Positions 1-14,073 of a stretch of DNA of 64,000 nucleotides are shown in pieces. The DNA comes from Omnitrophica bacterium GWA2_41_15 (GTDB lineage Bacteria; Omnitrophota; Gorgyraeia; Gygaellales; UBA12090), in the NCBI GenBank assembly GCA_919902675.1, contig CAKKRH010000023.1:12000-75999 (forward strand), in the 5' to 3' direction. The notes beneath the pieces were generated by a model. It saw nothing but the letters and a program-made list of their open reading frames with translations, ran no database searches and was not told where the DNA came from. The number at the start of each line of letters is the position of its first letter. The first letter of the stretch is position 1. The position numbers and the translations under genes were made by a program.

Positions 1-927
1 TCCATAAATGATGTTTATATAATCTGTGTCACGTCCGACCATTATCCGGCCGTAATGTATCAGGCAAAAACGTTCCTCGAGAAAAATGATTCTGATCCCA
101 GTCCGATTGTAATAAACATTTTTGATTTAGATATATTAACCTATTACTTAAAATGCCCTTTCGAATTCTTATATTACCTCAGGCAAAGAGTATCCTTAAA
201 TGAACATTTTATGGGGCAATCAGAGATCGACCTTTTAGCCTATCATCTTAACCAAAAACTATTTCCCCTGAAGGATGAGAAATCGGGGAGGCCTATTGAT
301 TGGGCTTTGGTTGAAGGGATGGGGCAACTCATAGATGCACATTTTCCATCCGCGCGTGGACATGTTCCAAGGACAAGCGCGATGCAGAGGTTACATGCGA
401 AATGGTCAAATCCAGACTTTCAGGAAATGGTTGATCAATTAAAAAAATCAAAACAATCCGGTTTTACAGATGCTATTTTCTATTTATATGATTTGGCGGG
501 GAAAGGGGCCGATCAGTTTATTGCTGAGGTGAAGGCCTTGAAGGAGAGGTGCTTAAGAGAAAGAAAGAGCCTAAGATTTCATATGGCCACGAATGATGGT
601 AAGTCCGGCATTTGTTATGTTTGCGACTTTCAGAATCATGACAAATTATTTAGACATTTAACTGAATATTGCATGGTTAAGAAATATCAAATGAAGGCGA
701 GCTTATGGCTTGGTTTTGCCGCCATGGCAGATAATGCAAAGAATTTTGAATTAGTCATGTTTGGTAACGGCCCTTGGATGCATGACCCTGAGCTTGAACA
801 AATAGCAAATAAATATTACACAAAAAGCACACCGATTAATTTAAAGACACGAGAAAAGATAGGTAGAAATGACCCTTGCCCATGTGGCAGTGGAAAGAAA
901 TACAAAAAGTGCCACGGAGTATCTTGA
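1..927 (+). CDS. Uncharacterised protein with C-terminal SEC-C metal-binding motif (5' end probably outside window)
   Basis: Track ORF 55..927 ends ...[21 protein letters not shown], the classic [16 protein letters not shown] motif. Frame 1 has no stop between nt 1 and the ATG at 55 ([19 protein letters not shown]...), so the gene may continue leftwards. Its TGA directly abuts the ATG of the next gene (927/928). Confidence 0.6.
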
Positions 928-1494
928 ATGGATATAAAAAGGCAGACGCTGAAGGATAATCTTATGGCAAGCAATAATTCTTCTATCGATGAACGTGTCG
1001 ATAGGTATTTAGATATTGGTCACCATTGGATAATTGGCAACCATCATTTCGCCGCCGCATCATCCAAGTGTATCAATTTGTACCGCGACGGTCATTTTAT
1101 TGCCGCGGTGATGATGAGCCATAGCATCAATGAGGGCATTATTGTGTTTGTCGCAGATCGAGTCAAGTTGCATAGAGATAAGAGTGGCGGCGGGGCAAAA
1201 TCAATCGAAGATTTGATTGCCGACCTCGAGCAAAACAGGACAATATCAAAAACTTGTGCTGATGCCGTAAGAGGTATATACGAAAGCTACAGAAACGATG
1301 TGCATCACATGAACCCAAAAGTCGGCAGTATAGATTTTCCAGTGTTAGCCCGCAATAATCTGAAGCGATTGGCAATAATTGAAAGTGAAGTTTTTGGAGT
1401 AGATATAGTTGAGGGCAAGCTGAATCCGCATCATCCGGTTTTTTGGGATTTGAATTCTGATGGGACGGTTTCAGTATTCTTACGTCTAGAGTGA
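928..1494 (+). CDS. Hypothetical protein, possible HEPN-like fold
   Basis: 188-aa ORF starting on the nucleotide after the upstream stop. It contains ...GIYESYRNDVHHMNPK..., which fits the HEPN Rx4-6H (RNxxxH) signature. No other family recognised by eye. Confidence 0.45.
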   Translation: MDIKRQTLKDNLMASNNSSIDERVDRYLDIGHHWIIGNHHFAAASSKCINLYRDGHFIAAVMMSHSINEGIIVFVADRVKLHRDKSGGGAKSIEDLIADLEQNRTISKTCADAVRGIYESYRNDVHHMNPKVGSIDFPVLARNNLKRLAIIESEVFGVDIVEGKLNPHHPVFWDLNSDGTVSVFLRLE

Positions 1495-1501
1495 GGCCTC
1501 A

Positions 1502-2386
1502 ATGACTTATAGAAAAGTTTATCCTTCGCAATTGAATTTTAATCTTGAACAGCAGAGGCTTTGCGTTTGCGCATTTGGTGAAACAAAATATAATCCCGAT
1601 CTTTGGGGTATTAAGTATTTATTTGATAAAGGCCTCCATGGTAATAACGCGGAAATATGCGTGAACGGCGCTATACCCAATAGTCTTGCTTTGCGGATGT
1701 ATTTTTTACGCTACCTGTTTCCTGACATTAGATTCCATGATGACTATGGGGATAAGTTTAGTGCAGAGGCTGAGGAGATAATAAGAAATATCGGAACAAA
1801 ATATGTTACTTATTCAGTAAACGGCCATTTATTCGACGACAGAGGTACTAAGGACAAGTTGGAATCTTGCATCGAGAAAGAATTGGCCGATAACATTTCA
1901 CGATATATTCCGGACTTTGCTAATGGCGTTAAAATTATTCGACAATTTCCGGCCAATATGTTTCGAGATTGTATCAGCGAGGGCTCCAGAGTTACTGACA
2001 AACTTTGGATTGATATGGTTTCGGTGAATTGCGCGGGAGAGCTATCTCCCATTGAGCTGAAGGTAGGCGGGAATATTCCACTAGACTTGTTCGCGCAAGG
2101 GCTTGATTACGGTACTTATTGTCATCTTTTCAAAGGGCACGTAAAGGACAATTGGTTCAATGAGAAAACTGGTGCCAAAAAGGATAAGGTGACCATTTAT
2201 TATATTGGCGAAGAGTTCCATCCTGCTCTTGTCGGGAGAGGCAAGGAGAAAGGTATTATTTCGCTTATCAGGCAAAACGAGCTGTTTAATATCGTGTTTG
2301 TTAAAATTACCGTAGATAAAAAGAGACGATGTATAGTAGGTAAATTAGAAGTTATTTTTGATACGAGGAAACAATGCGAATTGTAA
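1502..2386 (+). CDS. Hypothetical protein, possible PD-(D/E)xK nuclease fold
   Basis: 294-aa ORF with a 7-nt gap after the upstream stop. ...KLWIDMVSVNCAGELSPIELKVGG... gives a D-x13-E-x-K arrangement like restriction-endonuclease-fold cores. The 3' end overlaps the next gene start by 13 nt. Confidence 0.45.
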   Translation: MTYRKVYPSQLNFNLEQQRLCVCAFGETKYNPDLWGIKYLFDKGLHGNNAEICVNGAIPNSLALRMYFLRYLFPDIRFHDDYGDKFSAEAEEIIRNIGTKYVTYSVNGHLFDDRGTKDKLESCIEKELADNISRYIPDFANGVKIIRQFPANMFRDCISEGSRVTDKLWIDMVSVNCAGELSPIELKVGGNIPLDLFAQGLDYGTYCHLFKGHVKDNWFNEKTGAKKDKVTIYYIGEEFHPALVGRGKEKGIISLIRQNELFNIVFVKITVDKKRRCIVGKLEVIFDTRKQCEL

Positions 2387-3710
2387 TCCATCGCGGCACT
2401 CATCAAATCGGTGGCAGTTGCGTTGAGCTTGAAACAGGCGATACCCGAATCCTGCTTGATTTCGGGATGCCGCTTCAGGATACCTCTGGAGCTGATTTTA
2501 ACGACCGTGCGCTTGATAGTAAATCATTGCAGGGCCTTATTGACGAGAAGGTTCTGTTTGATATTCCGGGGTTATATCGGGGCGCGGATCCCTCTGTAGA
2601 CGCCGTTCTTATTTCGCACTCCCATAAAGATCATTATGGTTTCCTGCCGTATATTAATCCTAAAGTACCAGTATATTTAAGCAAAGGCGCTTACGAGTTG
2701 GTGCGCGCGCTTAATGTTTTTTTGCCTGAGTCTAAGCGGACTACCATAAGTGCTCCAATCTTTCTGCGGCATAAGCGGCCGGTTAGAATAGGCGGGTTTT
2801 CTATCACACCATATCTGGTTGATCACTCCGGCTTTGATGCGATGGGATTTCTGATAAACGAAACGGCCACCGGAAAGACTATTTTGTACACTGGAGATTT
2901 TCGCGCAGGCGGATGGACGAAGAGGCGTTACGATGATTTTATTAACAAGCCTCCCGCACGGGTTGATTGTCTTTTGATGGAAGGCACTATGCTAGCGCGT
3001 GAGGGCGGTAAATATCCGGATGAGCCAGCCGTGGTTCAGGGTGTTATCGAGGCTATTCAAAAAAGCGCAAATACGGTTATACCTGTATATTGCTCCGGCC
3101 AAAACATTGACCGCATCGTTTCTTTATACAAAGCCGCGCGTAAAGCAAAGTCTGTACTTGTGGTAGACCGTATACCGCGTACATGCTCAAAGTGGCTGGT
3201 GATATATCAAAAAGTATCCCTCAGATCGAATGGGCCGATATTCGAGTCTTCGTAGCCAATTATGGTCGGGGTGATATTTATATCAGCAAAATAGCGAAGT
3301 CCGAACGTGAGAAAATGATGATTAGCCTCGGCAGGAAGAAAATAAAAGCATTTGATTTTACCAGCCTCAAACAAAAAGCTTTGCTTCTTATGCGTAATAC
3401 CATGATTCCGGTTGTGGAAAAAATACCTCAGATTAAGGGCTCATCGCTGATCTATTCTCAGTGGGAAGGATATATTAAAAGAGATACACCTGACGCGAGG
3501 AAATTTCGAGAGTTCATCAAACGCAATAATTTGAATATTGAGTATGTTCATACCAGCGGTCATGCAACACTTGAAAAGCTCAAGAAGTTTGCCGCGAAGA
3601 TGAACGCTCGGCAGATTGTTCCGATTCATACCGAGTATCCCGAAAGGTTCCGAAAATATTTCGGGGAGAATGTTATTCGATATGAGGACGGACAGCATTT
3701 CGAAGTATAA
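2374..3710 (+). pseudogene. MBL-fold (beta-CASP-like) metallo-hydrolase split by a frameshift
   Basis: ORF 2374..3255 starts MRIVIHRGTHQIGGSCVELE... and carries the HxHxDH motif (ISHSHKDHYGF). ORF 3183..3710, in another frame, carries the C-terminal MBL/beta-CASP-type motifs (HTSGHAT..., VPIHTEYPE). The second frame is open from 3144. Reading gac-cg near 3166-3170 as gac-ccg would give a continuous ...SVLVVDPYTAYMLKVAGD... protein of about 445 aa. Confidence 0.75.
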
Positions 3711-3856
3711 GACAAAATCCTCCCGATTTATCTTTAAAAGCCCTTTCCGAATTATTACCAATCCGTAGTAACGACCCCATTGTCAAAATAATTCGTTGTT
3801 GTAAGATCAAGACAGACTCGCGGGACAGCTGATCACTGTTGCCGTTTTGCAGAAAG

Positions 3857-3891
3857 CCATTTCCAGTCAACTGGCCGGAAATGGTTTTTTT
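3857..3891 (+). terminator. Intrinsic terminator after the four-gene operon
   Basis: Stem ccatttcc (3857-3864) pairs with ggaaatgg (3877-3884). It is followed by a T-run, ttttttt (3885-3891), and a further ttttt. Confidence 0.6.
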
Positions 3892-3927
3892 ATTTTTATG
3901 GGGTGGGACACTTTGGCAAAAAAGGCT

Positions 3928-4100
3928 GTATATACGCTTCAGGGTGAGACATTTTGACAAGAAATTCCGTATATACGCCTTGGAAAGAAAAACTACGGCA
4001 GGGTGCGAAACTTTGAGCCTAAAAACGTAATAACTACGGTGAGGGACAAAAAGTTCCGACACTTTTCGGAAAAATCCGGAATATACGCTTAGGGAGTGAA
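3928..4100 (+). repeat. Iteron-like direct repeats (TATATACGCYT cores plus AGGGTGnGA...TTTGA units)
   Basis: gtatatacgctt at 3928, gtatatacgcct at 3969 and gaatatacgctt at 4079. Interleaved similar units: cagggtgagacattttgac (3940-3958), cagggtgcgaaactttgag (3999-4017) and gtgagggacaaaaagttccgac (about 4039-4060). Confidence 0.55.
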
Positions 4101-4104
4101 AGTA

Positions 4105-4238
4105 GTGAAGAAAGTGAAAATATTTCCAGCAGTTTTACCAAAAACATCGTATGTAGCTAGTAGAGGGCTTGTGAAGTGAAAAAAGTAAAAATATTTCCGT
4201 CAGCTTTCCAATTCTTTGCGTATGTAGCTAGTAGGAGG
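4105..4238 (+). repeat. Two tandem direct repeats of about 66 bp immediately upstream of the DUF5659-like/primase genes
   Basis: Unit 1 is gtgaagaaagtgaaaatatttccagcagttttacc...cgtatgtagctagtagaggg (4105-4166). Unit 2 is gtgaagtgaaaaaagtaaaaatatttccgtcagctttcc...cgtatgtagctagtaggagg (4171-4238). Confidence 0.75.
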
Positions 4239-4248
4239 CAGTGAAACT

Positions 4249-4479
4249 ATGAAAGACAAGTGCTTTGAGGCAGGAAATCTCTATCTGGCTACGTATTTGC
4301 TCTATTGCGGGTTTGCTATGAAGGGCATTGAGGGATCGGGGCGGCTTAAAAGGATCCTGTTTGACGATATCCCGGCAGTCCATAAGGCATGTGAAGAATT
4401 TTACGCTGATTCGGAGGCGCGCAAGTTATTTGATTGTTACCGAAGGGTAAAGGATTACTTATTTCAAAACGGAGTTTAA
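4249..4479 (+). CDS. Small DUF5659-like protein
   Basis: 76 aa with a strong SD (aggagg) 9 nt upstream. The pattern ...NLYLATYLLYCGFAMKGIEGSGRLKRILFDD...EFY... resembles, from memory, the small DUF5659 proteins of phages and mobile elements. Confidence 0.5.
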   Translation: MKDKCFEAGNLYLATYLLYCGFAMKGIEGSGRLKRILFDDIPAVHKACEEFYADSEARKLFDCYRRVKDYLFQNGV

Positions 4480-4481
4480 AA

Positions 4482-6611
4482 ATGGAAGACGAGAGAAGAA
4501 AAGAGAAGAGAAAAATGGAAGATATCATACCGCAGGAATTGCTCAAGCTCCCGAGCTGGGTCGGATATCAGCTCAGGCGTAATAAAGACCGCATTGATAA
4601 AGTTCCCATGAACGTCCTGACCGGACGTCCTGCCAAAAGCAATGATCCAAGCACGTGGACAGATTTCGAGACCGCAGCTGATTTGGTGAGTCAGCGTGGA
4701 TACGCGGGTGTTGGCTTTATGTTTCAGCCGTCTTATGTGGGCGTGGACATCGACCATTGCGTTAAAGACGGAGCTATCGCGACGTATGCGGTAGAAATCT
4801 TAAAGGCGCTCAATTCATATTCGGAATATTCACCCAGCGGCACCGGCATTCATATTCTTTGTAAAGGCGAGATCGCCCGGGCCTGCAAGATTTCAAAGAT
4901 CGGTCTTGAGATTTATACCAAGGGCAGATTTTTTACCGTTACCGGCAATCGACTTGAAAATTATCCGGCTGAACTCAACGAGTGCACTGATGCACTTAAG
5001 ACGATATTCAGTCGGTTTGTAGATAAAGGGCCCGCGGACGATATTCTCGCCATAATCGCCAAGAGCCAAGACGCGGACAAGTTTCAGCGGCTATATTCCG
5101 GCCAATGGCAAAACGATTATCCATCACAGAGCGAAGCGGATTTGGCGTTAGGCAACAAGTTGGCTTTCTGGACAGGCAAGGACGCCGGGCGTATGGATTC
5201 GCTATTTCGTCAGTCCGGACTTATGCGGCCCAAGTGGGATGAGAAGCATTTTGGTGACGGCCGAACCTATGGACAGTCGGTTATCGAAAAGGCGGTTACG
5301 GATTGCCGGAAGGTGTATGCGTCAAACCGGCCCAATCTGCTGATAGCCAGAAAGGTTAACGCCAATGAAGTCGCTGACGAAATCCTCAAACATAATCGGC
5401 TTATCAACTTCGCTGACACCTATTACGAATACAGAGGCGGATGTTACCGGCCACTGTTTATCGAGGAGGTTCAGAAATGGATTAAAGATGCGTGCGGTGC
5501 TGGTTTCTCAGCAAGCAAGCTTCGCAATGTTCTGGTCGCGCTTAAGACCGAGACTTTCGTCAAGCCGGACATCATCAATGGCATTACGCTCTTTAATGTC
5601 AAAAACGGGCTTTATGACATCGACAAAATGACGCTCTTGCCGCATTCGGCGGATGTCTATTCCATCAACCAGCTTAATGTGACATACCGCGAGAACGCCG
5701 AGTGTTTGTTGTGGCAGAGGAGTCTTGATCAGATCTTTGAGAATGATGCGGTCCGGATCATGCTTCTTCAGGAGTATTTCGGGTATTGCTTGACCCGGGA
5801 CAATGATTATGAAAAGGCGCTTTTTCTGTTCGGCGAGGGGGCCAACGGCAAGAGCGTTGTTTTGTATGTGCTCGAGGAGCTTATCGGCAAGGACAACTGC
5901 TCATCCATTCCGCTTGAGAAGTTTAACGATTCCCACTATATCGCCCGGCTTCGGGACAAATTGGTCAATATCAGCCTTGAAACAAATGCCAAGACAAATG
6001 TCTATGACAATATGTTTAAGGCGATCGTGACCGGCGATACGATCTCCGCTGACGAAAAATACGGCCAGCCGTTTCAATTCAAACCATACTGCAAGCTTCT
6101 TGTCTCAACCAATAATATGCCGCGCGTGGGGGATAAAACCGAGGGATATTACCGCCGTATTTTAATCCTTCCATTTAACCGGCAGTTTTCAATTGAAGAG
6201 CGTGATCCAAAACTAAAGCAAAAGATCGCGGCCAGCGAGCTGGACGGGATCTTTTTGTGGTCGCTTAACGGCCTTACGCGATTAAGGAAACGCGGGTATT
6301 TCGAGGAGAGCGCTTCGATGCAGACCGTGAAGGACGCGTATCGTAAGAAAAATAATAACGTGATCATCTTTGTGGAGGAGCAGTGCGTTTTGGATGCTCA
6401 GGCGGACGTAGGCAGTGACGCCTTGTATGTGGCTTATCGGGACTGGTGTCTGGAGAACGAATACCGGCCGCTTAGCAAGATCCTGTTTGGCCGGGAGCTC
6501 TTGCGTCAATATCCCGCAATCAATAGAGGGCGGTGTGGCGCGTCGCGCCGATGGGACGGCATACGTGTCCGCAGGGAGGGTGAGGTTGATTATTCGGAGC
6601 GGCCGTTTTAG
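4482..6611 (+). CDS. Phage/plasmid primase-helicase (prim-pol N-domain, PriCT-like, D5/P4-family SF3 helicase)
   Basis: Prim-pol-like N-terminus (GVGFMFQPSYVGVDIDHC, SPSGTGIHILC). PriCT-type segment (SQSEADLALGNKLAFWTGKDAGRMDSLFRQSGLMRPKWDE). Walker A GEGANGKSV and a P4-family C-terminal helicase region. The track ORF starts at 4434; the ATG at 4482 has a ggag SD and avoids overlap with the upstream gene. Confidence 0.9.
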   Translation: MEDERRKEKRKMEDIIPQELLKLPSWVGYQLRRNKDRIDKVPMNVLTGRPAKSNDPSTWTDFETAADLVSQRGYAGVGFMFQPSYVGVDIDHCVKDGAIATYAVEILKALNSYSEYSPSGTGIHILCKGEIARACKISKIGLEIYTKGRFFTVTGNRLENYPAELNECTDALKTIFSRFVDKGPADDILAIIAKSQDADKFQRLYSGQWQNDYPSQSEADLALGNKLAFWTGKDAGRMDSLFRQSGLMRPKWDEKHFGDGRTYGQSVIEKAVTDCRKVYASNRPNLLIARKVNANEVADEILKHNRLINFADTYYEYRGGCYRPLFIEEVQKWIKDACGAGFSASKLRNVLVALKTETFVKPDIINGITLFNVKNGLYDIDKMTLLPHSADVYSINQLNVTYRENAECLLWQRSLDQIFENDAVRIMLLQEYFGYCLTRDNDYEKALFLFGEGANGKSVVLYVLEELIGKDNCSSIPLEKFNDSHYIARLRDKLVNISLETNAKTNVYDNMFKAIVTGDTISADEKYGQPFQFKPYCKLLVSTNNMPRVGDKTEGYYRRILILPFNRQFSIEERDPKLKQKIAASELDGIFLWSLNGLTRLRKRGYFEESASMQTVKDAYRKKNNNVIIFVEEQCVLDAQADVGSDALYVAYRDWCLENEYRPLSKILFGRELLRQYPAINRGRCGASRRWDGIRVRREGEVDYSERPF

Positions 6612-6830
6612 TGACGGCTATGACGATTATGACAGGAATTTTCATTAATTGTGTTCGTAGGTTAGGAGTAAGGATCAAGGGGGATTGAGCGTGGTAAGTA
6701 AAAAGATAACCATGAGAAAAAATGTCATTGCTGTCACTGGTAGCTCGATGCCGGTTCACCCCGCTGAGAGGTGCGGGGCTGGCGAGTCCTTGGAAGGGGG
6801 TGTCGGCCGAGGGTCGGGCGAGGCGCGGTC

Positions 6831-7050
6831 TGTCAGTGATACAAAATTTCAAAAATCGATGTCATGTCATATGGGGTCGGTGTCAGTGTGTCAGAATTGC
6901 CGAAAACGCGCTCAAAACAGGCGTTTTTGGAGTAAAAATGGGCATTTTAGGGCGATTTTGCGACTTTTCGAGTGACATCCACTGACATTTTGAATGTCAG
7001 TATGTCAGTAAAACCGGACACAACCGGACATAAAAAATGTCCGAATGTCC
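6831..7050. repeat. Dense array of paired short repeats with ATGTCA/TGACAT and CCGGACA/TGTCCG cores
   Basis: tgtcagtgat (6831), atgtcatgtcat (6859-6870), gtgtcagtgtgtcag (6880-6894), gtgacatccactgacat (6972-6988), aatgtcagtatgtcag (6993-7008), ccggacacaaccggacat (7014-7031), atgtccgaatgtcc (7037-7050). Nearly all occur as adjacent pairs and in both orientations. Confidence 0.65.
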
Positions 7051-7266
7051 TATTGGGCAGTTGGGAAAATGGACAAGGATGTAAGCACAAATAAAGATCA
7101 GGCGGTTACCCTGCGGGGCTGGGATGCTTTAGAGATAAAGCTCAAAAGCCGTGGCCTGTCTTGTGCTGAGATCCAAGAAGCCCGAAAGTCATTTTTTGAT
7201 GGAATTGAAACACTGGCGAAAATGTTTATGACGATTTATTCTGCAGAGAAGAAACCTCTTGTATAA
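7045..7266 (+). CDS. Hypothetical small protein
   Basis: 73-aa ORF between the repeat array and the excisionase-like gene. No recognisable motif. An alternative start at MDKDV (7069) is possible. Confidence 0.35.
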   Translation: MSYWAVGKMDKDVSTNKDQAVTLRGWDALEIKLKSRGLSCAEIQEARKSFFDGIETLAKMFMTIYSAEKKPLV

Positions 7267-7314
7267 GGTTGTATATTACGGTATACTGGGCACCATTAGA
7301 TGAGGGTGCCAAAT

Positions 7315-7491
7315 ATGAAAACATACTCCATGACAGAGACGGCAAAATTACTGGGCGTGCACCGGCAGACCATGATCAATTGGATCCGCAGGGGCTGGGT
7401 TAAGCCCAAGCGCGATTATAAGGATTGGCCGGTGTTTACGGACGAGTGTATCGCCAAGATTAAAGAATGGCGGGAGACGTTAAAAGGATAA
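7315..7491 (+). CDS. Excisionase/MerR-type helix-turn-helix DNA-binding protein
   Basis: MKTYSMTETAKLLGVHRQTMINWIRRGWVKPKRDYKDWPVFTD... is a typical excisionase-family HTH. It sits directly upstream of, and is translationally coupled to, the recombinase. The track ORF begins at 7300; the ATG at 7315 has a better SD. Confidence 0.75.
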   Translation: MKTYSMTETAKLLGVHRQTMINWIRRGWVKPKRDYKDWPVFTDECIAKIKEWRETLKG

Positions 7492-7493
7492 CA

Positions 7494-9173
7494 ATGAGAG
7501 TAGCGTTATATACGAGGGTAAGCACAGAGGATCAGGCGCGCGAAGGTTATTCGCTGGAGGTGCAGAGGACATATCTTTTGCAATACGCGAAAAATTTCGG
7601 CTGGGATGTTTTTTGCAGTATGTCGGGCCGGGATGTTTATATGGATGATGGTTATTCCGGCGGCAATATGGACAGACCGGCGTTGCAGAGACTTTTGTTT
7701 GACGCGCGCAATAAGCAGTTTGATCTGATCTTGGTATACAAGCAGGATCGCCTAAGCCGTCGGCTTAAGGATCTGTTGGGATTGCTTGAGGAGATTGATT
7801 CTTTGGGTATTGGCTATAAATCGGCGACCGAGCCATTCGATACCACATCCAGCGCCGGTAAGATGGCGATTCAGATGTTGGGCAGTTGCGCGGAGTTTGA
7901 ACGCAATCGTTTGGTCGAGAGGGTATTCCCGGGCATGGTTGTTGGCGTTAAAAGAGGCCACTGGCAAGGCGCGCGGTATGCGCCGTATGGGTATCGTTAC
8001 AATAAGGAAATCAAGAAGTTGGAAGTCCATCCGGAAGAGGCAAAAATCGTTAAAGAAATTTATGCGATGTACATAAGCGGCACGAGCACTTCGCGGATCG
8101 CAGGGCATTATTACAATCTCGGGATCCCCTCAAGGCAAGGCGGACGGTTTTATAATAAATTCATTTCCAGTATTCTGCAGAGTGAGGTCTATTTAGGGAT
8201 GCTGGTGTGGAATAGACGTCGCTATAACACAAAAGAAAAGACAAAGAACGGCGAAGGCAAAGGTTACAAGTACGTGAATAATGATCCGTCCAAGATCATT
8301 GAAGTACCGAATACTCACGAGCCGATAATTACGCAAAGAGATTTTGATGAGGCCAGAACGCTTCTCAAACGTAACCGCACCAATGGTGTGGTTAGATTCA
8401 GGAATAATGTTTATCAGCTTTCCGGTATTCTGAAATGCAATGAGTGCGGAGGCAATTACCGCGGAATCACCGCGACAGTTAATCATCGCACCAAAATGCG
8501 GCGGCCATGGTATCGTTGTTCTTCCAAAGGCATACCGCATATTAAATGTAGTAATAAATCTGTTACGGCTGACGCGATCAATAAGCAAGTTTGGGATATC
8601 GTAGAAGTCATCCGTCAGAATCTTCATGTGCTTGAGGAACTGGGTGACATGATCAAACTTAACGCATCCGAGCCGGAGCAGTTGTATGTCGAGCAGTTAG
8701 AGGATAAAGACGCGCTTCTTAAGAAGAATATCGAGAAGCAAAAGGGGATCTACGAGTTGTTTTCAGAGGATAAAATTAATCTCGCGCTTTATAAGGATAG
8801 GGCCGAGCTTTTGAGTAATGAGGAGAAAAAACTAAAGCAGGATATCAAGGCGATTCAGCTTAAGATTCTGGATAAGCGTAATTCCGTTAACCTTGTTAAG
8901 GCGACGCAGGATTTCCTTTTAAGGTTACGGAGCACGCCGGATGATCGTCAATTGGATTATCTGGTCAAAACCTTTATGCGGATCATTTTTAAATCGATCC
9001 ACATCCAGAATCAGGAGATCGTGAAGTTCGATCTGAACGAGCCTTGGAAGACTTGCTATGAAGAGGGGATGAAATGGTTGAAAACGAGCGAAAAGACGAC
9101 AATACAGGCGATTCCGGAGGCAAAAGCCCGAAGAAGTTACGTGTGCTTTTGCGCACCTTCGGATGCCAGATGA
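7494..9173 (+). CDS. Large serine recombinase (integrase)
   Basis: Resolvase-type catalytic N-terminus (VALYTRVSTEDQAREGYSLEVQ). Recombinase domain, then a Cys-rich zinc ribbon (CNECGGNY...WYRCSSKGIPHIKC) and a long coiled-coil segment. The last 100 nt overlap miaB in another frame. Confidence 0.9.
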   Translation: MRVALYTRVSTEDQAREGYSLEVQRTYLLQYAKNFGWDVFCSMSGRDVYMDDGYSGGNMDRPALQRLLFDARNKQFDLILVYKQDRLSRRLKDLLGLLEEIDSLGIGYKSATEPFDTTSSAGKMAIQMLGSCAEFERNRLVERVFPGMVVGVKRGHWQGARYAPYGYRYNKEIKKLEVHPEEAKIVKEIYAMYISGTSTSRIAGHYYNLGIPSRQGGRFYNKFISSILQSEVYLGMLVWNRRRYNTKEKTKNGEGKGYKYVNNDPSKIIEVPNTHEPIITQRDFDEARTLLKRNRTNGVVRFRNNVYQLSGILKCNECGGNYRGITATVNHRTKMRRPWYRCSSKGIPHIKCSNKSVTADAINKQVWDIVEVIRQNLHVLEELGDMIKLNASEPEQLYVEQLEDKDALLKKNIEKQKGIYELFSEDKINLALYKDRAELLSNEEKKLKQDIKAIQLKILDKRNSVNLVKATQDFLLRLRSTPDDRQLDYLVKTFMRIIFKSIHIQNQEIVKFDLNEPWKTCYEEGMKWLKTSEKTTIQAIPEAKARRSYVCFCAPSDAR

Positions 9174-10294
9174 ATATCCGAGATTCAGAGGCGATTGTGG
9201 GGATGCTTTTGGAAGGGGGATTTGGAGTAACGGAAGTTGAGGAAAAGGCTGATGCAGTGTTGTTCGTTACCTGTTCGGTGCGCCAGCACGCGGAGGATAA
9301 GGTCTGGTCGGAAATTGGGAGGATAGCTAAGGGGAAGGGGCGATCCTCCGGGATGGAGGGACAGTCCACTTCGGGGACATTCCCTATAATTGGCCTCATT
9401 GGCTGTATGGCGGAAAATTACAAGGAAGGCGCTTTTAAGAGGGCGCCGGGGGTGGATTTGGTGGTGGGGACGAATAATATCGGGGAAATTCCTCAATTGC
9501 TGAAAGAACTTCTTAAAGCCAAACCCAAAACCCAGAGCAGAGGACAAAAATTAGCCGTGGGTAAGGATAAGCGCGATGAATTCGTGTATCAACCCGAATT
9601 CCACCAGGAAGATAACCACAGCCTTGTGGTTATCTCTGAGGGTTGCGATAACTTTTGCTCTTACTGCATCGTGCCGCGGGTGCGGGGGCGCCTGCGCCAT
9701 CGGAAGCCGGAAGATATCTTAAAGGAAATAAAAAGAAATATTGAAAAAGGAGCCGCCTGCGTTACCCTTCTAGGGCAAAACGTAAACGCGTATAAGTATG
9801 ATAAAACGGATTTTATTGATCTACTTAAGCTGGTTAACGCGATTACAGGCCTGGCGGAGTTCGGTTTTGTTACTTCACATCCCAAAGACGCCTCGCTTAA
9901 GCTTTTCCAGGCCATGGCGGATTTGGAAAAATTAAAAAAATATTTACACTTGCCTTTTCAGTCCGCTTCAAATAGAATATTAGAGATAATGCGCCGGGGC
10001 TATAGCCCGGAGCATTATCTGGATTTGGCGCGGGCCTACCGAAAGATTGTGCCACAAGGCGAGCTTTCCACGGATGTAATTGTGGGGTTTCCGGGTGAGA
10101 CTGAGGAGGACTTTCTAAAGACCAAAGAGCTGATGGAGGAGGTCCGGTTTAATAACGCTTACATCTTTAAATACTCTCCACGGCCTAATACCAAGGCTGA
10201 AAAGCTCAAAGACGACGTGCCTAAGGAAGAAAAGGAGAGGCGGCATAAAATTTTGCTTGATCTTCAAAGGCAAATTTCCCGTGAACTAAAATAA
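9074..10294 (+). CDS. miaB: MiaB-like tRNA methylthiotransferase (no TRAM domain visible)
   Basis: UPF0004 N-domain (LRTFGCQMNIRDSEAIVG) and radical-SAM CxxxCxxC (CDNFCSYCIVP). miaA lies two genes downstream. The protein ends right after the radical-SAM core (...ERRHKILLDLQRQISRELK). Confidence 0.85.
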   Translation: MVENERKDDNTGDSGGKSPKKLRVLLRTFGCQMNIRDSEAIVGMLLEGGFGVTEVEEKADAVLFVTCSVRQHAEDKVWSEIGRIAKGKGRSSGMEGQSTSGTFPIIGLIGCMAENYKEGAFKRAPGVDLVVGTNNIGEIPQLLKELLKAKPKTQSRGQKLAVGKDKRDEFVYQPEFHQEDNHSLVVISEGCDNFCSYCIVPRVRGRLRHRKPEDILKEIKRNIEKGAACVTLLGQNVNAYKYDKTDFIDLLKLVNAITGLAEFGFVTSHPKDASLKLFQAMADLEKLKKYLHLPFQSASNRILEIMRRGYSPEHYLDLARAYRKIVPQGELSTDVIVGFPGETEEDFLKTKELMEEVRFNNAYIFKYSPRPNTKAEKLKDDVPKEEKERRHKILLDLQRQISRELK

Positions 10295-10299
10295 AAAAC

Positions 10300-11061
10300 A
10301 TGAGACCCAAAATACTTATATTTATTTTTTCTCTATGGACTGTGGACTGTGGACTATGGACTCATTCTCTCTGCGCCGAAACCATAAACAAAGCCGCCTC
10401 TTTATATCTTCAAGGCAGTTATAGCGAGAGTATTAATGAATGCGGAATTAATATCGCCAGGGATAATTCGCCGGATAGCGCGCTTTATTTAGCCGGCCTG
10501 AATTTCTTAAGAATAAAGGATACTGAGAGGGCCAGGGAAAAGCTTACCCGGGTGATGGATAATTTCAAGTCCAGCCGTTATCTTGATCCGGCAAAATTAG
10601 CTTATGCCGATACCTTTTTTATGGAGCAAGATTATGCTAAGGCCGGACAGCTCTATGAAGACGAGCTCAAGGCCGATTCCAAATTGGCCAGCGCCCTGCT
10701 CTTAAGATTAAGCCAATGCGCTTTAAAGTCCGGAAGTTGGTCCAAGGCCAAGGATTATATGGATACTCTAAAGCAAAGATATCCCTTAAGCCTAGAGGCG
10801 AATATCCCCGCCTCCATAACCCAGGCAATAAATAATCAATTCTTTACGGTCCAGGTCGGCTCTTTTGCTAGCTCCCAGAACGCCAAAAAACTTCTTGAGA
10901 AGCTAAAAAAGAATAACTTTGACGCCTATATCGAAGAAACAAGCTCAGACTTTAAGACCCTTTACCGGGTGCGCGCGGGAAAATTAGACACCCGGGCCCA
11001 GGCGGAAAGCCTGAAACAGATATTGGAAGAAAAAGGTTACCCCGCCAGAATCTATCCTTAA
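10300..11061 (+). CDS. Envelope protein with TPR-like region and C-terminal SPOR domain
   Basis: N-terminal hydrophobic signal-like segment. The C-terminus FFTVQVGSFASSQNAKKLLEKLKK...YRVRAGKLDTRAQAESLKQILEEKGYPARIY is a typical SPOR peptidoglycan-binding domain. Confidence 0.75.
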   Translation: MRPKILIFIFSLWTVDCGLWTHSLCAETINKAASLYLQGSYSESINECGINIARDNSPDSALYLAGLNFLRIKDTERAREKLTRVMDNFKSSRYLDPAKLAYADTFFMEQDYAKAGQLYEDELKADSKLASALLLRLSQCALKSGSWSKAKDYMDTLKQRYPLSLEANIPASITQAINNQFFTVQVGSFASSQNAKKLLEKLKKNNFDAYIEETSSDFKTLYRVRAGKLDTRAQAESLKQILEEKGYPARIYP

Positions 11062-12020
11062 TGACCCGCCGCCTTCTGCCCTGCGTAAAACAAAAGCCAA
11101 AGATACTCTTTCTCATCGGCCCTACCGCGGTGGGAAAAACCGCGCTCTCCTTAAAATTAGCCCGGAAAATCAATGCCCAAATAATCTCTTTAGACTCAAT
11201 GCAAGTCTATCAAGGGATTGATATCTTAAGCTCAAAGCCGGGCCTAAAACCACGCCAAGAAATCAAACATCATCTGATTGACATTCTAAGCCCGGATAAA
11301 GAGTTTGATGCCGCTTGCTACCGGAGATTAGCCGTCAGGGCAATTAAGGACATTCACCAAAAAGGTAAAATTCCCTTGTTTGTCGGCGGAACCGGACTTT
11401 ATCTAAAAGTGCTCCTGGAGGGAATCTTTACCGGAGCAAGCAAGGATGAGGACTTGCGCCAAGAACTTTACCGAGAGGCGGAAACTTCGGGAAGCGAGTA
11501 TCTCCATCAAAAACTAAAAGAAGTGGATGAAGAATCCGCCGCCAGGATCCATCCCAATGACACCAAGCGTATCATCCGGGCGCTTGAGGTCTATAAGCTC
11601 ACCGGAAAGCCGATCTCCGAACTGCGGAAAAAAATAAAAGGCCTTGAAGATAAATATGAGATTATTGTTTTTGGGTTAAATAAGGACCGGGAGATTTTAT
11701 ATAAAAGCATAGACCAACGGGTAGATGAAATGTTTGAGCGCGGCCTGGTAGATGAGGTAAAGAAACTGCTCTCCGGAAGCTTGAGCCTTACCTGCAAACA
11801 GGCAATCGGAATCCGGGAAATCCGGGACTACCTGGAAGGAAAACACGATTTAGAGCAAGCCAAGGGCCTGCTTAAGAAGAACACCCGTAATTACGCCAAA
11901 AGGCAGTTAACCTGGTTTAGGAAAGATAAAAAGATTATCTGGCTGGATGCCGATGACAAGCAAATTATAAACAGGATGACGCGCTATATCTTATCCGAGA
12001 AGGAAGGAAAAAGGGCTTAA
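11061..12020 (+). CDS. miaA: tRNA dimethylallyltransferase
   Basis: P-loop GPTAVGKTALSLKLA, then SLDSMQVYQGIDILSSKP, with full-length MiaA-like organisation. Confidence 0.9.
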   Translation: MTRRLLPCVKQKPKILFLIGPTAVGKTALSLKLARKINAQIISLDSMQVYQGIDILSSKPGLKPRQEIKHHLIDILSPDKEFDAACYRRLAVRAIKDIHQKGKIPLFVGGTGLYLKVLLEGIFTGASKDEDLRQELYREAETSGSEYLHQKLKEVDEESAARIHPNDTKRIIRALEVYKLTGKPISELRKKIKGLEDKYEIIVFGLNKDREILYKSIDQRVDEMFERGLVDEVKKLLSGSLSLTCKQAIGIREIRDYLEGKHDLEQAKGLLKKNTRNYAKRQLTWFRKDKKIIWLDADDKQIINRMTRYILSEKEGKRA

Positions 12021-12021
12021 G

Positions 12022-13290
12022 ATGATCGAACTGAATCAAAAAGAAAAGGCCTTATTGGTTACGATTGATGTATTCGCCTTCAGGGATAAGGCGCTTAAGA
12101 TTGAAGAAGAGGCCCGGGAATTAAAGGAATTAGCCATGACCTCCGGGGTTGAGGTTATTGAGGAATTAACCTGCCACTATGATAGTCCCGCGCCTAACCT
12201 CTTTATCGGTAAAGGCAAGGCCGAAGAATTAAGCCTGATTGCCGCTGAGCATAATGTTGATGTAGTCATATTCTCGGTAGACCTCTCCGGGACCCAGCAA
12301 AGAAACCTGGAGGAGGCGATTGGACGCAAGGTAATTGACCGCACCCAGCTTATTTTAGACATCTTCTCCCGACACGCTAAATCCCCGGAGGGGAAAACCC
12401 AGGTGGAGCTGGCCCAATTGGAATATCTTCTGCCCCGGCTGATTGGCAAAGGCATAATGCTTTCCCGCTTAGGAGGCGGCATCGGCACATCCGGCCCGGG
12501 AGAACAAAAACTTGAGCTTGACCGCCGGAGAATCCGCGGCCGGATTACCCGGCTAAGGGCGGATTTAGAAAAAATGCGCTCCCAAAGGCACCTAATCCGC
12601 AAAAAAAGAATAGCGCAAAAATTACCCCTGATTGCCCTGGTAGGCTACACCAATGCCGGAAAAACCACCCTACTTAACACCCTGGTCAACGAACACCAGT
12701 TAGCCGATAACCAGCTCTTTACCACCCTGGACCCCCTAAGCAGGACCCTGGTCCTGCCTGAGTGTCAAAAAGTGATAATCTCAGATACCGTGGGGTTCCT
12801 GCATAACCTGCCCCATCATCTGATTGAGGCCTTCAAGTCCACCCTAGAGGACGTTAAGGATGCGGATTTACTGCTGCATGTTCTGGATATATCCTCTACC
12901 TTGCGCTACGAGTATCATCAGGCAGTTGAGGCAGTACTAAAAGAATTAGCCTGCGCGGATAAACCGCTTATCACTGTTCTCAATAAAGCGGATAAATTAG
13001 AGGAGCAGAACTGGATTGAGAAATACAAGCTGGATTTTCCTGATTCTGTAGCCATCTCGGCCCTGAAGAAAGAAAATATAGAGAAACTTTTATCCCGGAT
13101 ATCCCAAAAGATCCCTAAAACCATCCATAAAATCTCCATATCCGTCCCCTTAGATAAAATGAGCCTGGTAGACCTGATTTACCGTGAAGGCAAGGTAGAA
13201 AAAATAAAATATACCAGCAAGTCCATTGCCATCATCGCTCAAATTCCGGACGCGCTAATCCATAAGTTTAACCAATACCTAAAAGAATAA
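12022..13290 (+). CDS. hflX: GTPase HflX
   Basis: HflX N-domain, then the G-domain motif GYTNAGKTTLLNTL, DTVGF and NKAD. This is the classic miaA-hflX neighbourhood. Confidence 0.9.
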   Translation: MIELNQKEKALLVTIDVFAFRDKALKIEEEARELKELAMTSGVEVIEELTCHYDSPAPNLFIGKGKAEELSLIAAEHNVDVVIFSVDLSGTQQRNLEEAIGRKVIDRTQLILDIFSRHAKSPEGKTQVELAQLEYLLPRLIGKGIMLSRLGGGIGTSGPGEQKLELDRRRIRGRITRLRADLEKMRSQRHLIRKKRIAQKLPLIALVGYTNAGKTTLLNTLVNEHQLADNQLFTTLDPLSRTLVLPECQKVIISDTVGFLHNLPHHLIEAFKSTLEDVKDADLLLHVLDISSTLRYEYHQAVEAVLKELACADKPLITVLNKADKLEEQNWIEKYKLDFPDSVAISALKKENIEKLLSRISQKIPKTIHKISISVPLDKMSLVDLIYREGKVEKIKYTSKSIAIIAQIPDALIHKFNQYLKE

Positions 13291-13365
13291 CCTCTTTTGG
13301 CGGTTAATGCTTAGTTTAAAATAATGGTAAGTGTTAGAATATCTAACTAAAATTATTAAAATATC

Positions 13366-13394
13366 TTGACAAATAAGTTAATTTAAAGTATTCT
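13366..13394 (+). promoter_or_regulatory. Sigma-70-type promoter (TTGACA-N17-TATTCT)
   Basis: ttgaca at 13366-13371, a 17-nt spacer, tattct at 13389-13394. It lies upstream of the long palindrome and the hspR-like gene. Confidence 0.55.
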
Positions 13395-13411
13395 ATTGTT
13401 AGAAATTTATA

Positions 13412-13573
13412 AACCCGGATTTTGCAATAGGAATGCGGCACCGAGACGCCAAAGAAGGATGCAGATTTGGCAGAAAAAAGTGCGCGCATACTTTTAGTAT
13501 GTAAGCGCTTTTTTCTGACGAAGATGCGCCCTTATTTGGCGGCGAATGCCATTACTATTGCAAATTCCGGGTT
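13412..13573 (+). other. Imperfect palindrome of about 160 nt (extended hairpin) in the hspR-like leader
   Basis: aacccgga (13412-13419) pairs with tccgggtt (13566-13573). Further complementary blocks are tttgcaatag/ctattgcaaa, cgccaaa/tttggcg, cagaaaaaag/cttttttctg and atac/gtat around the centre at about 13490-13500. Confidence 0.7.
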
Positions 13574-13585
13574 AAAGGTAGAGAT

Positions 13586-13849
13586 ATGACTTTATGCAAT
13601 ATCCAAATCAGTCCGGATGAACCGGTATATGTTATCAGCGTAGTGAGTAAACTGGTGGATTTGCCTGTCTGGACCTTACGCCAATTAGATAGAAAAGGCG
13701 TAGTCTGTCCTAAAAGAATCGGCAGAAAGAGCCGGCTTTATTCGCTTAAGGACATGCGAAGATTAGAACAAGTTCATTTCCTGATGATAGAAAAGCGGGT
13801 GAATATTAGCGGGATTAAGGTAATCCTGGAACAAGAACTTTTAAAATAA
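13586..13849 (+). CDS. hspR: MerR-family heat-shock regulator, HspR-like
   Basis: VYVISVVSKLVDLPVWTLRQLDRKGVVCPKRIGRKSRLYSLKDMRRLEQVHFLM..NISGIKVILE closely follows the HspR pattern (YVISV..L......LR.YDR.GLV.P.R..G..R.YS..D...L..V). It lies directly upstream of clpB. Confidence 0.75.
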   Translation: MTLCNIQISPDEPVYVISVVSKLVDLPVWTLRQLDRKGVVCPKRIGRKSRLYSLKDMRRLEQVHFLMIEKRVNISGIKVILEQELLK

Positions 13850-13866
13850 ATTTTTTTATATTTTTA

Positions 13867-13896
13867 TTGGCACTCTCACTAAAAGAGTGCTAAAAT
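13867..13896 (+). promoter_or_regulatory. CIRCE operator (HrcA site) embedded in a sigma-70-type promoter upstream of clpB
   Basis: ttggcactc-tcactaaaa-gagtgctaa (13867-13893) matches the CIRCE consensus TTAGCACTC-N9-GAGTGCTAA with one mismatch. TTGGCA (13867-13872) and TAAAAT (13891-13896), spaced 18 nt apart, form a plausible -35/-10 pair overlapping it. Confidence 0.85.
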
Positions 13897-14073
13897 AAAT
13901 TAAAAGTAAAGAGCAAAGAAATAGGAAGAATAAATAACCGGCAATCAGACTGTGTCATAATACCATTATAACCTTTAGGATAGGCGGGGTTTTCTAACCC
14001 CGCCACGACGATGCGGGACAAGAATGTCCCGCCTATCCGGAGAAAAAGTGTATTGCGGCACAGTCTCAATGTT

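Follow-up and report, generated by a model that had tools for sequence, protein, structure and literature searches.

Integration of a large serine recombinase element at miaB in Omnitrophota, and the probable rebuilding of the miaB start from the 3' end of the integrase gene

Introduction

What becomes of a host gene whose 5' end has been taken over by a mobile element is the question raised by a locus in Omnitrophica bacterium GWA2_41_15 (assembly GCA_919902675.1, contig CAKKRH010000023.1, positions 12,000 to 75,999). This whole stretch of 64,000 nucleotides (nt) is the window, to which coordinates refer unless another contig, designated by an L number or accession, is named. Here the gene of a large serine recombinase (the integrase) and miaB overlap by 100 nt (9074–9173) in different frames. 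A preliminary description of this DNA had reported that overlap, taken the recombinase to be the terminal gene of an integrated element and placed the crossover within about 9040–9173, at or inside the 5' end of miaB. What it gave as coordinates and protein sequences of the overlap is correct, element DNA runs to 9165, and the crossover can be narrowed to 9163–9165. We put a probability of about 0.85 on the explanation developed here, that the element integrates at miaB and rebuilds the start of the gene from the 3' end of its own integrase gene. The features on which the argument turns are these:

7494–9173, plus strand: large serine recombinase (integrase), 559 amino acids (aa) in the integrated state (Pfam Resolvase, Recombinase, Zn_ribbon_recom)
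9063–9068, plus strand: Shine-Dalgarno-like GAGGGG, 5 nt before the replacement miaB start (sequence; C-Y-E-E-G motif in the integrase frame)
9074–9163, plus strand: element-encoded MiaB N-terminus MVENERKDDNTGDSGGKSPKKLRVLLRTFG, which is also the P arm (the element's half-site at the integrase end) and the integrase C-terminal linker (near-identity across hosts)
9074–10294, plus strand: miaB open reading frame (ORF), 406 aa, UPF0004 and Radical_SAM domains (Pfam, TIGR01574)
9164–9165, no strand: inferred crossover dinucleotide TG (last position common to all element ends)
9166–10294, plus strand: remainder of miaB, host-derived, running from the last base of codon Cys-31 through the stop (host divergence from 9166; TIGR01574)
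9171–9173, plus strand: integrase stop codon TGA, supplied by the host Met-Asn codons (ATGAAY) of the miaB CQMN motif (sequence)

The integrase and miaB

By its domain content the product of 7494–9173 is a large serine recombinase, with attP × attB catalysis predicted. The resolvase-type catalytic domain (PF00239) spans residues 3–157 (E = 1e-33), R8 and S10 are invariant in 52 relatives, PF07508 and PF13408 are matched as well, and the zinc-ribbon cysteines C315, C318, C342 and C352 are invariant; among NCBIfam families the closest are CcrB, CcrC and XisF, each far under its cut-off. The ORF has an alternative ATG at 7467, and the ATG at 7494 fits the homologue starts MRVALYTRVST. An AlphaFold2 (AF2) model shows a coiled-coil with long helices at residues 395–478, and in the model of a longer form of the protein, described below, the folded core ends near residue 530. 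Residues 532–564, which overlap the miaB start, have a predicted local distance difference test score (pLDDT) below 50 and are predicted to be disordered.

MiaB is assigned by the equivalog TIGR01574 (367.6 bits against a curated cut-off of 355.3), carries the radical-SAM motif CDNFCSYC (CxxxCxxC) and has miaA two genes downstream. Counted from 9074, in a frame that is +1 relative to the integrase, the protein begins MVENERKDDNTG and has all three N-domain cysteines, C31, C67 and C111. Automatic gene callers place the start at ATG 9170, giving a 374-aa protein with an ATGA overlap, from which C31 is gone. An exact look-up of the 406-aa protein found no record of it. The C-terminal TRAM domain is absent, with no Pfam TRAM match and a TIGR01574 match covering profile positions 3–371 of 437; Omnitrophota relatives likewise lack TRAM and have MiaB proteins of 397–415 aa (e.g., L023 10001–11248, L079 11632–12825). 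The gene after miaB starts 5 nt past its stop.

Position of the junction

The junction was placed by comparing ~60 related loci. Searching genomes sampled at one per GTDB species gave 19 miaB loci, almost all of them under an Omnitrophota label; the labels outside that phylum (a Smithella bin, Planctomycetia, Victivallaceae) are record titles and may reflect mis-binning. At 15 of the 19 loci MiaB is 41–57% identical to that of the window, and the first 30 codons and ~40 nt upstream are nearly identical, giving a nearly identical left side of 130 nt. A metagenome scan with a 25-nt P-arm pattern added 35 further loci, 24 of them joined to diverse miaB genes, ten joined to non-miaB DNA and one on a contig that ends exactly at the TG. 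The miaB-joined state (attR) is thus represented by the window and about 40 other loci, including the same arrangement in Candidatus Velamenicoccus archaeovorus LiM (L023). Overall, the segment 9035–9165 is nearly invariant beside miaB genes whose products are 41–61% identical to that of the window, and since the P arm is nearly identical next to such divergent genes, everything to the left of the crossover is element DNA. On this comparison the window opens within an integrated mobile element, whose right-hand part extends as far as 9165.

All element-bearing loci read ...ACCTTCGGA/TG (a slash marks the junction), and they start to vary at the last base of the Cys codon, TGC or TGT, and vary further in the next codon, CAG or CAA. 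The crossover is therefore placed at TG (9164–9165), within the codon for Cys in the conserved MiaB motif T-F-G-C-Q-M-N; with GGA as the Gly codon throughout the subfamily, AT (9163–9164) would fit too. Many contigs end within ~250 nt of the miaB site, which fits alternative junctions or several hosts sharing one element per sample.

On the integrase side, the preliminary description had read the C-terminal residues KWLKTSEK...CAPSDAR as read-through into host DNA. That holds for two of the 33 residues, the final AR, and for the TGA stop; the rest is element-encoded. The same host-made ending recurs in the family, because 101 of the 120 best cluster representatives of the integrase, with identities as low as 43%, stop exactly two codons beyond the miaB junction and end x-S/T-D/A/V/G-A/V-R/K-stop, matching host TGY CAR ATGA, with the final two residues following the host codons TGY and CAR. 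A further 15 of the 120 run on into tails of 14–45 residues, and four are partial.

Integrases 84–99% identical to that of the window occur in hosts whose MiaB is just 41–61% identical, and near-identical integrases in such divergent hosts point to recent spread between distantly related hosts. The identical 559-aa integrase is present in samples of several studies, Hainich groundwater included.

The replacement MiaB N-terminus

The replacement start consists of ATG 9074 and 30 codons (MVENERK...KKLRVLLRTFG), a low-complexity stretch followed by KKLRVLLRTFG, which mirrors the native K-V-Y/F-I-R-T-F-G. The same P arm is also found at junctions without miaB (L075, L036). Five subfamilies with different DNA keep an in-frame ATG 21–30 codons upstream of the junction with no stop codons, a purine-rich motif before that ATG and a hydrophobic strand ending T-F/Y-G; even in the distant subfamilies of L078 and L079 a comparable purine-rich motif stands ahead of the in-frame ATG. 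The replacement N-termini outside the window are:

L036: MAENRPNTGSSGGKTQKKPRVLLRTFG
L052: MVENAGNGAKNGNSGGKSEKKLRVLLRTFG
L078: MDKTSGKQRENSQNREENPKKLRILLRTFG
L077: MATPSTSRSCSKWKPVLYIKTYG
L079, with an integrase only 46% identical: MQDKTNSDSHKGRLVYIATYG

The retention of one design by five subfamilies whose DNA differs is our main argument that the replacement start has been selected for. In the preliminary description the element was suggested to supply the miaB N-terminus, its ribosome-binding site and its promoter; for the 30 residues and the ribosome-binding site this is borne out, and for the promoter it follows by logical necessity only.

The segment that serves as integrase linker and MiaB N-terminus also takes in-frame insertions, for example a 27-nt GC-rich palindromic sequence, CCCGCTTCGCCGAGAGCGAAGCGAGGCGAGC, and segments of the 'MDARFRGNDS' type. 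They are located in the P arms of L020, L045, L067 and L068 and in the C-termini of the integrases P0008 and P0019–P0021, and resemble small inserted repeats.

Other states of the site

Empty sites (attB) are seen in L021 and L030, where miaB has ordinary starts, MSKESKAYKNLPKKVYIRTFGCQMN (with an AT-rich upstream region) and MKFHIRTYGCQMN. The preliminary description had reasoned that an identical miaB 5' region in element-free relatives would place the junction elsewhere; the 5' ends of both empty sites differ from that of the window. A third locus, L017, also has an ordinary start but is given little weight as an empty site, having an integrase fragment upstream and a scaffold gap. No element-free contig of the window's own strain was found, all neighbouring-gene contexts carrying the element or stopping inside miaB.

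An attP-type junction is found in L075, whose integrase (P0001) is 99% identical to that of the window and 601 aa long, with a 44-residue extension. Its P arm is followed by TG ACGAATGGGTGCAGTCC..., through which the integrase frame continues as DDEWVQSYRTTLLFLKELFEYEASRSTSIKQTEGCSSTLLESKDS; past this tail lie terminator-like hairpins and the gene of a TraG_N-type membrane protein, and the same gene begins the DNA after the junction in L049 and L069. We call the DNA beyond the junction P'.

Looking up relatives of the L075 TraG_N-type protein led to left junctions (attL). In L084 the junction reads AAGGAATT-ATG AAA AAA GTT TTT CTG AAG ACT TTT GGA/TG/ACGAATGGG, so that the native miaB start, MKKVFLKTFG, runs straight into a TGA stop; the element side is 95% identical to the P' DNA of L075 over 352 nt, and upstream lies a 4HB_MCP-domain (chemoreceptor-type) gene, probably of the host. 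In L081–L083 MKQEVTAKKIFIRTYG is encoded up to GGC/TG, followed by AAGAATGGC. No integrase remnant was found upstream of the left junction in L081 or L084. Because the TraG_N-type gene lies directly beside native miaB 5' fragments in L081 and L084, P' is, on this sequence comparison, the left end of the element, either as a circle or as a tandem copy. The expectation that excision alters the termini of both proteins is thus matched in relatives by MKKVFLKTFG (L084) and by the 44-residue tail (P0001/L075), and the far end of the element, which the preliminary description had proposed to find with its matching half-site, is present in relatives (L081–L084), not in this genome.

Across the attP-type (L075), attL (L084), attR (window) and attB (L021) sites only TTYGGN-TG is common, together with weak flanking similarity. 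On these comparisons the position of the junction, the origin of each side and the spread of the family are established, and four states of the site are documented in relatives.

Left junctions were also sought in all the loci compared, by means of P' DNA, sequence patterns and peptides of the tail. The sole match was L061 position 5028, which was rejected as an attL since its left side is a decayed integrase remnant (RLYPPFQQ...LQPTAG) of the P0110-type subfamily. Two IMG/VR scans gave no match to P' sequences.

Alternative explanations

The insertion might be plainly disruptive, with miaB truncated and starting at 9170 and the frame from 9074 a by-product without a coding role. The choice of the 374-aa form by gene callers agrees with this, translation from 9074 is read from the sequence alone, and substitutions within the overlap do not favour the miaB frame. 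Against it, a start at 9170 loses the first of three conserved N-domain cysteines, five subfamilies keep the ATG, the purine-rich motif, the open frame and the strand ending T-F/Y-G, and occupation of the site in most sampled relatives is hard to square with loss of a conserved tRNA-modification enzyme whose partner gene miaA is kept two genes downstream. We consider simple disruption hardly likely. It is barely credible that the recombinase and miaB are ancestral neighbours, or that the crossover lies upstream of 9074 and MVENERK... is native: nearly all sampled relatives have the same arrangement, and nothing more speaks for it, whereas 9035–9165 is nearly invariant beside miaB genes of 41–61% identity, the same segment is also joined to non-miaB DNA, and the empty sites and left junctions have different, ordinary miaB starts.

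The junctions at which the integrase runs past ...SD could instead be secondary chromosomal insertions, the tails being chance frames and the integrase naturally ending no later than the junction. In L035 and L061 what follows the junction does resemble host or cargo metabolic genes, no checked contig is circular, the tail is predicted with low confidence, and its first three residues (x-R-W) are explicable by similarity between P' and B' DNA (AGATGG versus AGATGA). Yet the TraG_N-type gene that follows the junction in L075, L049 and L069 adjoins native miaB 5' fragments in L081 and L084, the junction of L041 is followed by an AbiEi gene that is inside an element in L061, that of L036 by a homologue of a metallo-beta-lactamase (MBL) cargo gene of the window, and unrelated P' types give tails with a common W/C-x3-Y/W-x3-L/M pattern. 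Secondary insertion is, in our estimate, improbable.

Several results weigh against the rebuilding of miaB by the element as we propose it. Of 21 overlap substitutions in the closest subfamily, 7 are synonymous when read as miaB and 6 when read as integrase, and an early impression that they favoured the miaB frame was dropped on this count. A scan of the plus strand upstream of miaB found no sigma-70-like promoter. The GTDB survey is biased toward carriers, the search peptide MVENERKD being itself element-encoded. The window's own left end lies beyond L004 and L006, which end in radC, so that attL and attP are taken from close relatives and only attR from this genome (attB, too, is known from relatives). 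The integrase tail is modelled as a helix with low confidence in the long form. Finally, element-to-element junctions need not be free circles: two contigs of one sample, L045 (joined to miaB, coverage 43) and L067 (joined to P', coverage 44), carry the same 27-nt insertion in the P arm, and this shared mark at equal coverage suggests a chromosomal tandem array.

Proposed mechanism

In the proposed rebuilding of miaB, the recombinase would join attP, located inside the 3' end of its own gene, to attB in miaB, the DNA encoding the conserved T-F/Y-G-C-Q-M-N, with crossover at the TG of the Cys codon. Integration would shift the native miaB promoter, start codon and first 10–16 codons to the left end of the element, and would join the remainder of miaB to a P arm carrying a ribosome-binding site, an ATG and 30 codons ending LRVLLRTFG, which would imitate the native first beta-strand and restore the context of the first cluster-binding cysteine. 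As the P arm supplies ribosome-binding site, ATG and strand mimic, MiaB would be rebuilt rather than destroyed, and we infer that the rebuilt enzyme is active. In the integrated state the integrase frame would cross the site and end two codons on at the host-made TGA; with the P arm on the element left end, in an excised circle or a tandem copy, it would continue for 14–45 codons and then meet terminators.

Transcription of miaB would be driven from element promoters, probably by read-through from the integrase operon. Between the primase gene (below) and the end of miaB no terminator-like sites were found (3.6 expected), and in the P' left end 5–6 occur in 700 nt (0.5–0.6 expected), one of them inside the conserved FLKELF-coding part of the tail. 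The tail or the terminators may be of consequence. After excision the P' terminators would stop transcription of the integrase gene; in an integrated element they would keep transcripts of the orphaned native miaB promoter from reading in.

More speculatively, and in our judgement less probable than not by a wide way, the att site may act as a state-dependent integrase switch combined with a miaB repair patch, with two integrase isoforms, read-through into miaB-miaA-hflX and spread through a family. The excised-state integrase would bear a C-terminal amphipathic tail with terminators behind it; the integrated form would lose the tail at the host stop, and its transcript would read through and drive miaB-miaA-hflX. 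As in the reported case of Mx8 IntP/IntX, the two isoforms might not be equal in activity, stability or directionality, and since serine integrases work in one direction, constitutive co-expression with a housekeeping gene would do no harm. Such a design would have spread over a large recombinase family, with FGCQMN-coding DNA as a near-universal landing pad.

Circles, tandem arrays and unusual junctions

Terminal overlap was found in none of 16 full-length contigs checked, most contigs with a P-TG-P' junction among them. In the reverse complement of L061, positions 5028–9088 form a tandem array at one site, each unit joined through TG-P': a decayed integrase remnant, a 4-kb degenerate element (N-terminally truncated integrase, AbiEi, RhuM, phosphoesterase) and then the left end of another element. 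One possibility is that the serine integrase builds such arrays by using attR as a pseudo-attB.

Two further contigs have unusual arrangements. The reverse complement of L068, a 5.1-kb contig, has P arms 2.5 kb apart, at 1740 and 4257, with a different P'-like sequence at each and only AbiEi/AbiEii-like genes between them, and the integrase upstream of each is apparently cut down to its final codons. In L035, from 769, the P arm is joined to TGGCCATTGGCCCCGCG, followed by a Schlafen/AlbA_2-type regulator gene and, further on, by ordinary metabolic genes (hcp, TetR, TolC, HlyD, ABC transporter); this could be a very large element or a secondary-site insertion.

Content and class of the element

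To the left of the integrase the window contains the following element features:

1–927, plus strand: 3' part of a 717-aa SEC-C-motif cargo gene whose start lies left of the window (Pfam SEC-C; full gene in L004 7847–10000)
928–2386, plus strand: two cargo genes, 188 aa and 294 aa, no Pfam match (same order in L001–L013)
2374–3710, plus strand: MBL-fold/RMMBL gene, two ORFs, 2374–3255 and 3318–3710 (Pfam Lactamase_B_2, RMMBL)
4249–4479, plus strand: small DUF5659 gene (Pfam PF18903)
4482–6611, plus strand: primase-polymerase/D5-type helicase, replication protein (Pfam NrS1-1_pol-like_HBD, D5_N, DUF5906, Pox_D5)
6783–7040, no strand: GC-rich motif of ~55 nt (GGGTCCTTGGAAGGGGGTGTCGG..GGGTCGGGCGAGGCG), then repeated TGTCAGT/CCGGACA words (recurs in most related elements)
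7045–7266, plus strand: small element gene, 73 aa (ORF conserved in L001–L006)
7315–7491, plus strand: HTH_17/MerR-type small DNA-binding protein (Pfam HTH_17, MerR_1)

The MBL-fold gene is split in the window and in L001–L006 and is a single 430-aa ORF in L036 (12401–13693); the split may reflect a frameshifted pseudogene or programmed frameshifting. The product of 4482–6611 also matches the NCBIfam P4-family primase C-terminal domain. Between this gene and the small ORFs sits the GC-rich motif, overlapped by a 94-aa ORF call and, in L041, L067 and L068, located 140–200 nt inside the element left end; the region is possibly an origin or a set of regulator-binding sites. An Rfam search of 1–14000, the motif included, gave no match. 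The HTH_17/MerR gene lies directly upstream of the integrase gene in all relatives, which makes its product a candidate excisionase or directionality factor.

Contigs with the identical recombinase reach further left, through the type I restriction-modification genes hsdR, hsdS and hsdM to radC; L004–L006 run 9–10 kb left of the window and stop in or near radC. Taken together with the window, they give at least 18 kb of element-like DNA to the left of miaB. HsdS differs in a 2.15-Mb long-read contig (ERZ1286166 contig_28).

No type IV secretion, coupling-protein or relaxase genes were found in the 18 kb seen of the window's copy. The left ends of relatives with 93–99% identical integrases open with a TraG_N gene, and that of L084, with its 95%-identical P' DNA, has TraG-D_C and Imm_superinfect genes as well; Replic_Relax and ArdA occur in distant subfamilies; and in L036, an IMG/VR contig, the same integrase type is accompanied by a terminase small subunit and virion-like genes. 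From these gene contents the integrase-att module seems to be common to conjugative, mobilisable and phage-like backbones.

A second conjugative-type element (L076 9301–11221) lies ~745 kb from the miaB locus in ERZ1286166 contig_28. It has TraG_N, TraG-D_C, TraL and TraE, and its left end interrupts dprA in the same 2.15-Mb genome, where the dprA frame enters ~34 foreign codons and then a terminator, which looks like the miaB-site design at a different target. The TraG_N homologue in this genome was accordingly rejected as the left end of the miaB element, as it belongs to a different element, in dprA.

Relation to known systems

[quoted passage not shown] Those elements replace the 5' end of the gene, preserving a structural beta-strand, and their cargo includes type I restriction-modification; rimO, but not miaB, is named there as a mobile-element target (Farrugia et al., 2015; PMC4482086). 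The dusA islands share with the miaB element a 5'-end insertion with an element-supplied replacement; they use tyrosine integrases, whereas the miaB element uses a large serine recombinase and a different target, so that they are an analogue and not members of one family. At miaB, unlike at dusA, the replacement 5' end is carried in an alternative frame of the integrase gene itself.

In the intP/intX system of myxophage Mx8, attP lies inside the integrase ORF and integration gives a recombinant gene with a new 3' end (PMC6070905). The miaB-site family resembles it in having attP inside the integrase gene and, in relatives, two lengths of integrase (559 aa versus 601 aa in P0001; tails in 15 of 120), whereas Mx8 Int is a tyrosine recombinase with a tRNA locus as its target and the window's integrase has serine recombinase domains only. 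Roughly 100 C-terminal residues are reportedly exchanged in Mx8, against 14–45 in the miaB-site family, and a functional change is said to have been demonstrated there experimentally.

Islander islands sit in tRNA and tmRNA genes and bring with them a duplicate of whatever part of the target they displace; the gene stays intact, the displaced fragment marks the far island end, and tandem arrays form at one site (PMC4383910). Regeneration of the target and the tandem array (L061) are points of likeness; the Islander targets are RNA genes, mostly at their 3' ends and with tyrosine integrases, whereas here the target is a protein-coding 5' end that needs a start codon and a ribosome-binding site.

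Large serine recombinase insertions in or at protein genes include A118 at comK, SPbeta at spsM, skin at sigK, Bxb1 at groEL1 and the Ccr-mediated insertion of SCCmec at rlmH; in most of these the gene stays interrupted until excision, or the insertion lies at the 3' end. The miaB element shares with them the recombinase class, site-specific insertion within or at the end of a conserved gene and a small accessory gene beside the integrase gene, and differs in the rebuilding of the target's 5' end and in an integrase ORF that runs across the site. No description of these miaB-site elements was found in the searchable literature on miaB and serine recombinases or on Omnitrophota mobile elements. 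The recombinase class is standard, and what is new is the combination of a serine integrase, a 100-nt segment with three uses, a stop codon donated by the host and a very conserved motif as the target.

Significance

A single 100-nt stretch would thus serve as a recombination half-site, as the C-terminal linker of the integrase, and as the ribosome-binding site and first 30 codons of a host enzyme. One practical consequence is that miaB starts are probably mis-called in many Omnitrophota genomes, while their integrases are annotated without a link to the site; another is that the C-terminus of the integrase may depend on the state of integration. These recombinases form a naturally occurring family whose attB is conserved and well defined and whose attP comes in many variants, and they are of interest for serine-integrase tools. 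Landing on one of the most conserved methylthiotransferase motifs helps to explain how near-identical elements come to be in very different hosts, and related elements occupy the miaB site in many Omnitrophota genomes. Since they carry restriction-modification, toxin-antitoxin and conjugation genes, the site could be a route of gene flow in the Omnitrophota, a phylum known almost exclusively from metagenomes.

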